A program made the translations under genes and the position numbers. A stretch of 63,896 bases of DNA, filler included, from Collodictyon triciliatum (taxonomy: Eukaryota), in NCBI GenBank assembly GCA_043381765.1. It is 17 parts of 17 records of this genome, joined end to end, with 100 filler letters (N's around TTAATTAATTAA, not from the genome) between each part and the next. Parts side by side here need not be neighbours in the genome. Positions count along the whole stretch, not along the records: positions 36,064 to 39,791 come from JBHJMP010006952.1; 16 more parts are not named here. The stretch is one strand, 5' to 3'. This document shows positions 36,296 through 37,972 of the stretch, piece by piece; the first letter of the stretch is position 1, and the number at the start of each line of letters is the position of its first letter. A model generated the notes under the pieces. That model had not been told where the DNA came from. It searched no databases and saw only the letters and a list, made by a program, of their open reading frames with translations.

Positions 36296-37230
36296 CTGAT
36301 AAAATTAGCATATTCATATGCAAATATGTGGTGGGTGATTATGTGTATAAAATATAAGTGTTAACTGACATATGTGAATGCATCATGATGCAATACTCAT
36401 ATGACTGCTGTGTTTGGTACGTGCGTAATCATAGGGAGTACGTTTTTATTATATTGGAAGATAAAATAATAGGAAGTGATAAAAAAGTTAACATATTCGT
36501 TTGCTAATATGAGATGCATAATTATGTATATAAAATATAAGTATTTACTGACACATTTGAATATATCATGGTGCAATATTCATATGATTGAGTCTGATAT
36601 GTGTATAATCAAAGAGAGTAAGTTGTTGTTAGTCTTGAAAGCAATATAATATGATATGACGCAAACATATTCGTTTGTAATTATGAGATGCACAATTATG
36701 TATTTAAGATATAAGTGTTAACTGGCACATTTGAATACCTTGCGATGCAATATTCATATGATTTTATGTCTGTTTGGGTATATAATCATAGGTTGTAAGT
36801 TTTTTATTTCTCTTGAGGGATGAGATAATACGATATGATAAAAATAAACATATTCCTTTGTAAATATGATATGCATTACGGAGTTTACATGAAATCAGTG
36901 TTAACTGGCACATGTGAATACACTTTGATGCAATAATCGTATGATTTCTGTGTCTGATGCGTGTATAATCATAGCTTGTAAGTTTTTTATTTCTCTTGAA
37001 AGATAAGATAATATTTGATGCAAAAAATAAACATATTCATTTGTAAATACGAGTGCATAATGATGTATACAAGAAATAAGTGTTAACTGGCACATGTGAA
37101 CACATCATGATGTAATATTCATATGATTTCTGTGTCTGGTATGTTTGCAATCACAGGAAGTAAGTTTTAATTTCTCTTGAAAGACAGGATAATATGAGAT
37201 GACGCAAATAAAGATACATTTTTTATGAAT
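36296..37230 (+). repeat. Tandem ~180-bp repeat, about 5 units; each unit is a spliceosomal intron plus a 3-nt exon
   Basis: Shared blocks in each unit: GTAAGTTTTT..TCTCTTGAAAG, AACATATTC.TTTGTAAATA, AAGTGTTAACTGGCACATGTGAA, GCAATATTCATATGATT, GTGTATAATCATAG. Period 177-183 nt. Confidence 0.93.
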
Positions 37231-37972
37231 AGATGATACGGATGGTTATGATAATAGGAACGATTTTAAGAGCGAAACCTCTGAATGAGAGATTTCATAT
37301 TCTTACGTGATAAAAGTTCATTTATTTTATGAAAATCGAAGGACGTAAGTTCTCATATTATTTAACACAGTTTTATTTGACTGCATTAAAAAAGCTGAAA
37401 ATGCTAGTATATCAAACAGCTAAGTATCGATTGTCATTTGTATTTAGCTATAACTTGGCTGATGTTATATTAATACGCCTTTTCAAAAAAAAAATTAGTA
37501 AGGTTTCTATTCTATAAATCCAATCGAGTTGATTCGTCAAAAAGCTTTACAAAAAATATATCTCTAAATTATGAACACTGTTTCTTTTTTCTTTTTTAAT
37601 TCTTGTTACGACCTAATATTCTGAAATACATCAATCCTTATTTTATATGTGTTAAAAAAATGGTCAGCATATAAAATTTTGTTTTTTAAAGCATAGTAAG
37701 CCACATTTCCTTGATGCTATTTTAAAATTATATGTATTGAACAATTTGAATCGCCATATTCGTCATACTTATCGAATTTTGGTGGAAACTTCTCTCTATT
37801 GTATTTCTTCAGAATCGCAAGGTTATTTTAAAATAATTCCAATATTCGCTTCCATTGCCACTTAATTATTTCTATTTTTTTTTTTTTGAGATGGTTAATT
37901 GGTCCGCAAAACATAGGATTTCGACTCAACTTCAAACCATGTGAAATCGTCTGCGTTGGGAATCACCTTTGA
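36435..37972 (+). CDS. Microexon gene, 3' part: nine exons of 3,3,3,3,3,3,4,4,9 nt plus a longer exon
   Basis: Exons 36435-37 GGA, 36615-17 AGA, 36792-94 GTT, 36975-77 CTT, 37157-59 GAA, 37342-44 GAC, 37499-502 TAAG, 37692-95 CATA, 37813-21 AATCGCAAG, 37917-37972. All are AG|exon|GT. Spliced frame: EEFLKTKHKSQGFRLNFKPCEIVCVGNHL*. Confidence 0.7.

Follow-up and report, generated by a model that had tools for sequence, protein, structure and literature searches.

A tandem array of intron-like units spaced three bases apart in Collodictyon triciliatum and its possible use as a chain of splice junctions

Can a splice junction be copied again and again within one gene, and if so, are the few bases enclosed by each copy exons, the marks of piecewise splicing, or simply part of a repeat? 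This question is raised by a small scaffold of the eukaryote Collodictyon triciliatum (GenBank assembly GCA_043381765.1, record JBHJMP010006952.1), in which about six head-to-tail copies of an intron-sized unit, with a period of ~180 nucleotides (nt), lie at 36296-37221 ahead of the last exon of a gene. The scaffold is one of 17 parts joined, with filler between them, into the 63,896-nt stretch analysed here (the window), along which all positions are counted. The original prediction, made from the sequence alone, took the array for neighbouring introns that are copies of each other and are separated by differing 3-nt exons. To name the segments introns and the triplets exons is an interpretation, not an observation. 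From the evidence set out below, we put at roughly 45% the probability that a splice-junction module has been multiplied locally and that the internal AG and GT dinucleotides are used splice sites which cut a long intron piecewise.

Architecture of the array and its junctions

The four complete units of the array lie on the plus strand at 36438-36614 (u1, 177 nt, running from GTACGT to AATCAAAG), 36618-36791 (u2, 174 nt, GTAAGT to AATCATAG), 36795-36974 (u3, 180 nt, GTAAGT to AATCATAG) and 36978-37156 (u4, 179 nt, GTAAGT to AATCACAG), and blastn of the units against the window showed them to be 73-81% identical to one another. Upstream of these is a partial unit on the same strand (u0, 36296-36434) that has only the central and 3' blocks and ends in AATCATAG; positions 36297-36434 align to unit positions 42-180 at 73-79% identity (blastn). 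Its 5' part is truncated by a (TCTTATGTTATGTTA)n microsatellite at 36064-36295, with which the scaffold opens after the linker (Tandem Repeats Finder: period 15, 15.6 copies, 98% matches). Downstream, a plus-strand segment of 182 nt (u5, 37160-37341, GTAAGT to AATCGAAG) begins like a unit and continues into an unrelated interior: only 37160-37221 aligns to the units (58-65 nt at 78-80%, blastn), and the likeness of the rest is no better than that of shuffles (z 0.5-1.6). The last intron-like segment (37345-37498, plus strand, 154 nt, GTAAGT to AAATTAG) ends at the acceptor of the terminal exon and is unrelated to the units by any recognisable likeness (z -0.35 to 1.2 against shuffles). Homology of 37225-37341 and of 35716-35866 to the units was likewise not above shuffles, and blastn found no further copy of the unit in the rest of the window, some 56 kb of unrelated scaffolds. 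The segment coordinates of the original prediction were all exact, and its account of four segments alignable end to end, preceded by one with the shared central and 3' blocks and followed by one alike only at its start and then by unrelated sequence, held up, the shared start measuring 58-65 nt where about 70 nt had been claimed.

Tandem Repeats Finder reports a single array at 36338-37202 (period 183, 4.8 copies, 75% matches, score 742) and, as the head-to-tail repetition of a unit of the 10-200-nt type at one locus within the window, it has the form of a minisatellite or variable number tandem repeat (VNTR). The array is flanked by microsatellites in very AT-rich DNA (29% G+C). The block of homology crosses the junctions between segments and ends in the middle of segments, on the left at the microsatellite (36295/36296) and on the right at ~37221, and each internal segment is made up of the 5' part of one copy and the 3' part of the next. 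The copies thereby supply both the donor and the acceptor of each intron-like segment, as judged at the level of sequence. This geometry speaks strongly for an array built by local tandem duplication of a module centred on the junction, and it is this part of the first duplication proposal (a 3' intron half, a 3-nt exon and a 5' intron half copied together) that stands. The module would join the 3' end of one intron to the 5' end of the following one across three bases, and unequal crossing-over or slippage, in a region rich in microsatellites, would have multiplied it at least five times. The product would be a run of at least six intron-sized segments (154-182 nt), each starting with GTA(A/C)GT and ending with AG, at a spacing of 3 nt. 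Gene conversion that homogenised the introns around the exons, another of the options first raised, may have acted as well; five copies are too few to judge it.

Six junctions of the form AG-NNN-GTA(A/C)GT occur at 36433-37340, the sixth of them beyond recognisable repeat homology. On the plus strand they enclose the triplets GGA (36435-36437, junction J0), AGA (36615-36617, J1), GTT (36792-36794, J2), CTT (36975-36977, J3), GAA (37157-37159, J4) and GAC (37342-37344, J5). All six spacers are exactly 3 nt long and have segments of the GT..AG type on both sides, again a statement about sequence only. The motif AGNNNGTAAGT occurs six times in the window, five of them at the array, where 0.98 occurrences would be expected on both strands together, and none of 100 shuffles reached six.

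To assess conservation, the five junctions with repeat homology on either side were aligned. At the triplet the mean pairwise identity falls to 0.30, below that of every other three-column window (184 in all); by a count of minimal changes it requires five, and 6 of the 184 windows require as many. The eight AG and GTAAGT columns reach an identity of 0.95, where the unit as a whole averages 0.73 (6 of 175 windows of the same shape are as high) and need one change, with 6 of 175 windows needing as few. The contrast in identity between flanks and centre is larger at the junction than in any other of the 175 windows. These results bear out the earlier claims that the triplets are among the most variable positions, although less extremely so by minimal changes, and that the splice positions are better kept than the rest of the unit. 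The invariance claimed for the AG and GTA ends also stands, with the qualification that the donor as a whole is GTA(A/C)GT, the first junction having GTACGT. Other blocks of the unit are conserved as well as the splice motifs are. Neighbouring junctions have triplets that agree at two of three letters (GGA/AGA, GTT/CTT and GAA/GAC), which shows that their letters are not random.

The sixth junction (J5, 37340) retains AATC..AG-NNN-GTAAGTT at a distance of 185 nt past the fifth, and both of its flanks are without repeat homology. When a profile of the five other junctions was run over ~127,000 positions on both strands of the window, J5 was the best match outside the training set, with a score of 10.88 and the next at 10.48. 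We estimate at ~0.003 the chance that the best outside match would land on this strand within the 340 nt that separate the array from 37498. J5 is the strongest sequence argument that the junction motif itself has been kept.

Probable transcript contigs and the possible use of the junctions

Where, then, does the array lie relative to a transcript? Transcript evidence came from contigs of two related organisms (runs X1 and X3) that are ~93-98% identical to the stretch where they align to 36296-39700. No public run covers this sequence well; small shares (0.08) of it occur in four of them, and all array junctions lie outside this cover. X3 record 9 spans 37499-37819 and then a joint at which 95 nt are skipped; the joint takes the GT..AG form when the cut is placed two positions to the right. 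The first part of the 3'-terminal exon region is accordingly 37499-37821 (plus strand), followed by the 95-nt GT..AG intron at 37822-37916, the only intron of this scaffold seen as a contig joint, and by the last exon at 37917-38095, with AATAAA at 38076-38081 and poly(A) addition at ~38095. X3 record 10 covers 37915-38095 and ends with 21 A absent from the DNA.

Upstream of the terminal exon the X3 contigs start at 37499 or 37494, the sequence beyond is unlike the stretch, and colinearity is lost right after an AG. We infer a plus-strand transcript with last exons at 37499-37821 and 37917-38095, with an acceptor AG at 37497-37498 or, in the relative, a few bases upstream, and with its upstream exon beyond the start of the scaffold. 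Given the loss of colinearity just upstream of 37499, it is a reasonable inference from the relatives' contigs that the array is part of the intron ahead of the terminal exon, in sequence that is spliced out, and in the sense orientation. Short X1 and X3 contigs also match the unit blocks 37093-37144 and 36835-36867, so the unit exists in both relatives. A 151-nt metagenome contig, X4 record 12, carries a 5' block like that of the fifth segment (37176-37202) and a 3' block like that of unit 2 (36754-36776), with 99 unlike letters between them; this is a unit variant absent from the assembly, and the array is therefore longer or variable in nature.

The tentative picture that emerges is one in which the junction signals would be real splice sites, selected and used, and a spliceosome accustomed to introns of ~100-180 nt would remove at least 1.4 kb of AT-rich sequence in pieces. 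Use of the internal sites has slightly less than an even chance of being true, and what argues for it is the kept sixth junction, the contrast at the junctions, the agreement in strand with the transcript and the intron-like size of every segment.

Several observations weigh against this reading. Each conservation test taken alone reaches only ~3%, with five copies and a site chosen beforehand for its pattern, and the 20 nt upstream of AATCA, a possible branch-point zone, are among the least conserved columns. The RNA evidence comes entirely from relatives and none of it from the source organism, and the X1 and X3 contigs are probably RNA, as judged by an automatic guess together with their poly(A) and joints. 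X3 record 8, the one contig of a relative to extend upstream of the terminal exon, lies on 37494-37525 and then runs on for 71 letters unlike the stretch, of which the last 30, AAAATCTGCCCATCCCGGGGCAAGATCAAT, have 50% G+C; they carry neither the predicted chain GGAAGAGTTCTTGAAGAC nor the GAC beside the exon. In the X3 relative, the triplets do not adjoin the terminal exon. X3 record 6 has the 3' end of a unit (GTATAATGATAG AGA) and then continues with TTTCAAAGAAAAATG (TTTCAAAG...) and not with GTAAGT. Records 6 and 8 belong to another organism, in which the array may differ, and 30 letters of each run-on were compared. The upstream-exon letters of record 8 were found nowhere in the window, nor were the other loose ends of the contigs (the leader of the next gene, the exon past 39684 and the run-on of record 6).

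Splicing at the internal sites and retention of the triplets are separate matters, and the second is considerably less probable. It is unlikely that all six triplets are retained as exons in the main mRNA, and we equally doubt that GGA, AGA, GTT, CTT, GAA and GAC are consecutive 3-nt exons between paralogous introns of ~180 nt. Were they so, each duplication would have added one intron together with one codon or three bases of untranslated region (UTR), a consequence as improbable as its premise, and the mature RNA would be predicted, with the same low expectation, to carry GGA AGA GTT CTT GAA GAC directly before TAAGGTTTC. Within the original duplication proposal, it is this exon status of the triplets that record 8 does not support. 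The region 37499-37821 has 27% G+C, starts with TAA and contains stops in all frames within 100 nt, so that retained triplets would stand at the very C-terminus or in the 3' UTR.

Competing explanations

The main alternative is that the array is an inert minisatellite, a 180-nt repeat within one long intron that is spliced in one step to 37498, its junction motif being a matter of chance and unused. We regard this as a substantial possibility, at rather less than even odds. The microsatellite flanks and the 29% G+C of the stretch suit it, as do the joining of an unlike sequence of 50% G+C to the terminal exon in record 8, with no chain of triplets, and the unit variant in X4 record 12, which is what one would expect of a variable repeat. 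Each conservation test reaches only ~3% and is post hoc, and other blocks of the unit are kept as well as the splice motifs. Against this, AGNNNGTAAGT, at 0.98 expected occurrences in the whole window on both strands, would be rare in any 180-nt unit; the largest contrast in the unit between conserved flanks and a variable centre falls exactly on the junction; and the orientation of the array agrees with the transcript. A further point is J5, where the motif is kept at the repeat spacing but without repeat homology; unless selection acted, some 105 nt of interior must have been replaced in a separate event.

The remaining explanations are far less probable. An introner-like mobile intron that inserted again and again, each time at its own 3-nt target-site duplication or beside it, seems very unlikely here. 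Its appeal is that the unit looks like an entire intron, carries both splice signals and is spaced by 3 nt, which is the length of the target duplication of some transposons; the unit-like 3' end in X3 record 6, followed by sequence foreign to the window, could also be a copy elsewhere in the relative. However, terminal inverted repeats bounding the unit were not found, the triplets differ far more than the units do, whereas one reused target would give equal triplets, and the homology breaks in mid-segment, as duplication would have it, rather than at the ends of an element. No other copy was found by blastn in the window's other scaffolds, and a scan of the metagenome contigs for an exact pattern matching the four units returned 0 stretches. 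The introner option of the original prediction is thus not upheld. About as improbable is a host-gene array for an intron-borne small RNA, of the kind of a small nucleolar RNA (snoRNA), in which the tiny exons would be mere spacers. The unit body is better kept than the triplets, unit blocks occur in contigs of the relatives, and two weak full-length Rfam matches to one Drosophila C/D box model occupy equivalent positions in units 1 and 4 (36514-36591 and 37054-37130), but at 31.1 and 29 bits (E-values 0.32 and 0.78) these stay far below the gathering score of 80. Read from the alignment, the C-box-like heptamer ATGATGT is present in one of five units, with ATTATGT or worse in the rest, and CTGA in two of five; the consensus fold gains nothing from covariation (+1.12, with 3 of 35 pairs compensatory), and the folding energy of the units is ordinary (minimum free energy z -2.1 to +1.4). 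We give the least credence to an assembly artefact, in which a repeat at the end of a small unplaced scaffold would have been collapsed or wrongly built, with a copy number and junctions that depart from those of the genome. In its favour, the scaffold measures 3.7 kb, starts in a microsatellite and is one of a string of unplaced pieces, another of which opens with a 95-nt copy of its own interior, and the unit of X4 record 12 is absent from the assembly. The copies differ by 19-27%, though, which is too much for collapse or a duplication error, and contigs of independent runs match the unit blocks.

Genomic setting and comparable systems

The window is a series of scaffolds strung together by falling length, in which the linker TTAATTAATTAA, with 44 N on either side, occurs 16 times (at 3786, 7624, 11461, 15298, 20671, 24506, 28341, 32175, 36008, 39836, 43664, 47492, 51320, 55147, 58973 and 62797). 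Of the complete pieces between linkers, 14 of 15 run from 3738 down to 3724 nt in non-increasing order and one measures 5273 nt. Pieces on the two sides of a linker are unrelated unplaced scaffolds and not genomic neighbours. The scaffold that bears the array is 36064-39791 only (~3.7 kb), so the upstream exons of the host gene are absent from the window and, with its coding exons outside, the one-residue-at-a-time growth of a protein that was first suggested stays a conjecture. A multi-exon gene at 32231-35963, which had been considered as the host (with ...QIN leading to TAA over a 1.8-kb intron), was discarded because the linker separates unrelated scaffolds. Perfect microsatellites stand at nearly all inspected scaffold ends, for instance 35867-35963, 36064-36295, 39689-39791, 39892-40059, 43393-43619 and 43720-43822; simple repeats abound in this AT-rich non-coding DNA, and it is there that the assembly broke. 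The scaffold beginning at 32231 opens with a 95-nt exact copy (32231-32325) of its own interior (34610-34704) that ends in a (TTTAT)n run, which is probably an assembly artefact at the microsatellite.

Downstream of the array on the same scaffold, 39358-39684 is the first exon of the next plus-strand gene (ATG at 39375, 52% G+C), which X1 and X3 contigs match at ~98%. These contigs splice at 39684|GTTTGT to an exon absent from the window. Ahead of the first exon they have a leader of 8 or 25 letters (...CACTACCAATCAAAG), which lacks colinearity with the DNA before 39358 and reflects either a 5' UTR intron or a spliced leader. On other scaffolds we observed a long open reading frame (ORF) with many WD40 repeats that runs into the scaffold end (1600-3741, minus strand), a G+C-rich ORF with a pacifastin-like cysteine domain (5106-7169, plus strand), an NHL-repeat ORF (52984-53796, minus strand) and a gene for a tRNase Z-like protein of the metallo-beta-lactamase (MBL) fold (30004-31820, plus strand; HADHH motif; Atlas: MBL fold). 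By reading, the last gene has GT..AG introns of ~85-155 nt, which gives an idea of the intron sizes usual for the genome. With 18 long ORFs as queries, Pfam returned no matches other than WD40, pacifastin-like and NHL, all on scaffolds other than that of the array. Protein searches with a 65-amino-acid exon of an unrelated neighbouring scaffold and with exon 1 of the next gene (39375-39683) gave no matches. A metagenome locus retrieved with the 65-amino-acid query was G+C-rich and free of repeats and was set aside as a false relative, probably bacterial. No tRNA was found, and the Rfam matches were all below threshold.

How does the array compare with known ways of making introns and very short exons? 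Recursive and nested splicing of long introns is familiar from Drosophila ratchet points, vertebrate recursive exons and dystrophin, and there too internal acceptor-donor pairs allow a long intron to be removed piecewise. At a ratchet point, however, the AG abuts GTAAGT and nothing is left behind, whereas here three bases lie between the two at six of six junctions and would stay unless the last step removes them along with the outer parts. Introners, as characterised in the sources consulted, are families of introns of similar sequence within one genome, dispersed over many genes, and many of them have direct and inverted terminal repeats; they share with the array the likeness of its introns, but the array is local, head-to-tail and without inverted repeats. 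Single conserved 3-nt exons, such as those described for MAP4K5, RPS24, Drosophila homothorax and PICALM, indicate that the spliceosome can define an exon of 3 nt, yet as described they are isolated between unrelated introns and form no chain. The micro-exon genes of schistosomes, with exons of 3-81 bp between long introns (PMC10526429), resemble the array in their runs of very short exons in multiples of three, which keep the frame whichever of them is included. In the account given there, the introns reach 5 kb and are not described as mutual copies, the exons are mostly longer than 3 bp and the proteins are secreted; in contrast, all spacers here are 3 nt, the introns are paralogous and the array stands at the 3' end of the gene.

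Closest in mechanism are single introns born by tandem duplication, which have been documented in a 2011 study (PMC3265369) and for potato RdRp (Ma et al. 2016, PMC4974935). As outlined in these reports, a direct duplication provides a ready donor and acceptor and thus an intron in one step, and in the potato gene the duplication crosses an intron-exon boundary so that the new intron inherits the parental signals; the geometry of the array suggests the same. Those cases, as presented, are single events with exons of normal size and proven splicing, whereas here there are at least five repeats, pieces of 3 nt and predicted splicing. A literature search of articles without their supplements found no published case of 3-nt exons following one another between paralogous introns.

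If the internal sites are unused, the array would be an ordinary intronic minisatellite, and it would show that a perfectly copied splice consensus is no proof of splicing. Few recent intron gains have been proven, and where tandem duplication was the cause it acted once. Should the internal sites prove to be in use, one splice-junction module copied at least five times would show that the duplication mechanism can iterate and that a spliceosome tolerates, or exploits, introns that lie three bases apart. The locus would then offer a test bed for the minimal length of an exon and for the order of splicing among neighbouring introns and, should the triplets be exons after all, it would be a living case of iterated intron gain, with the smallest possible exons in a chain.

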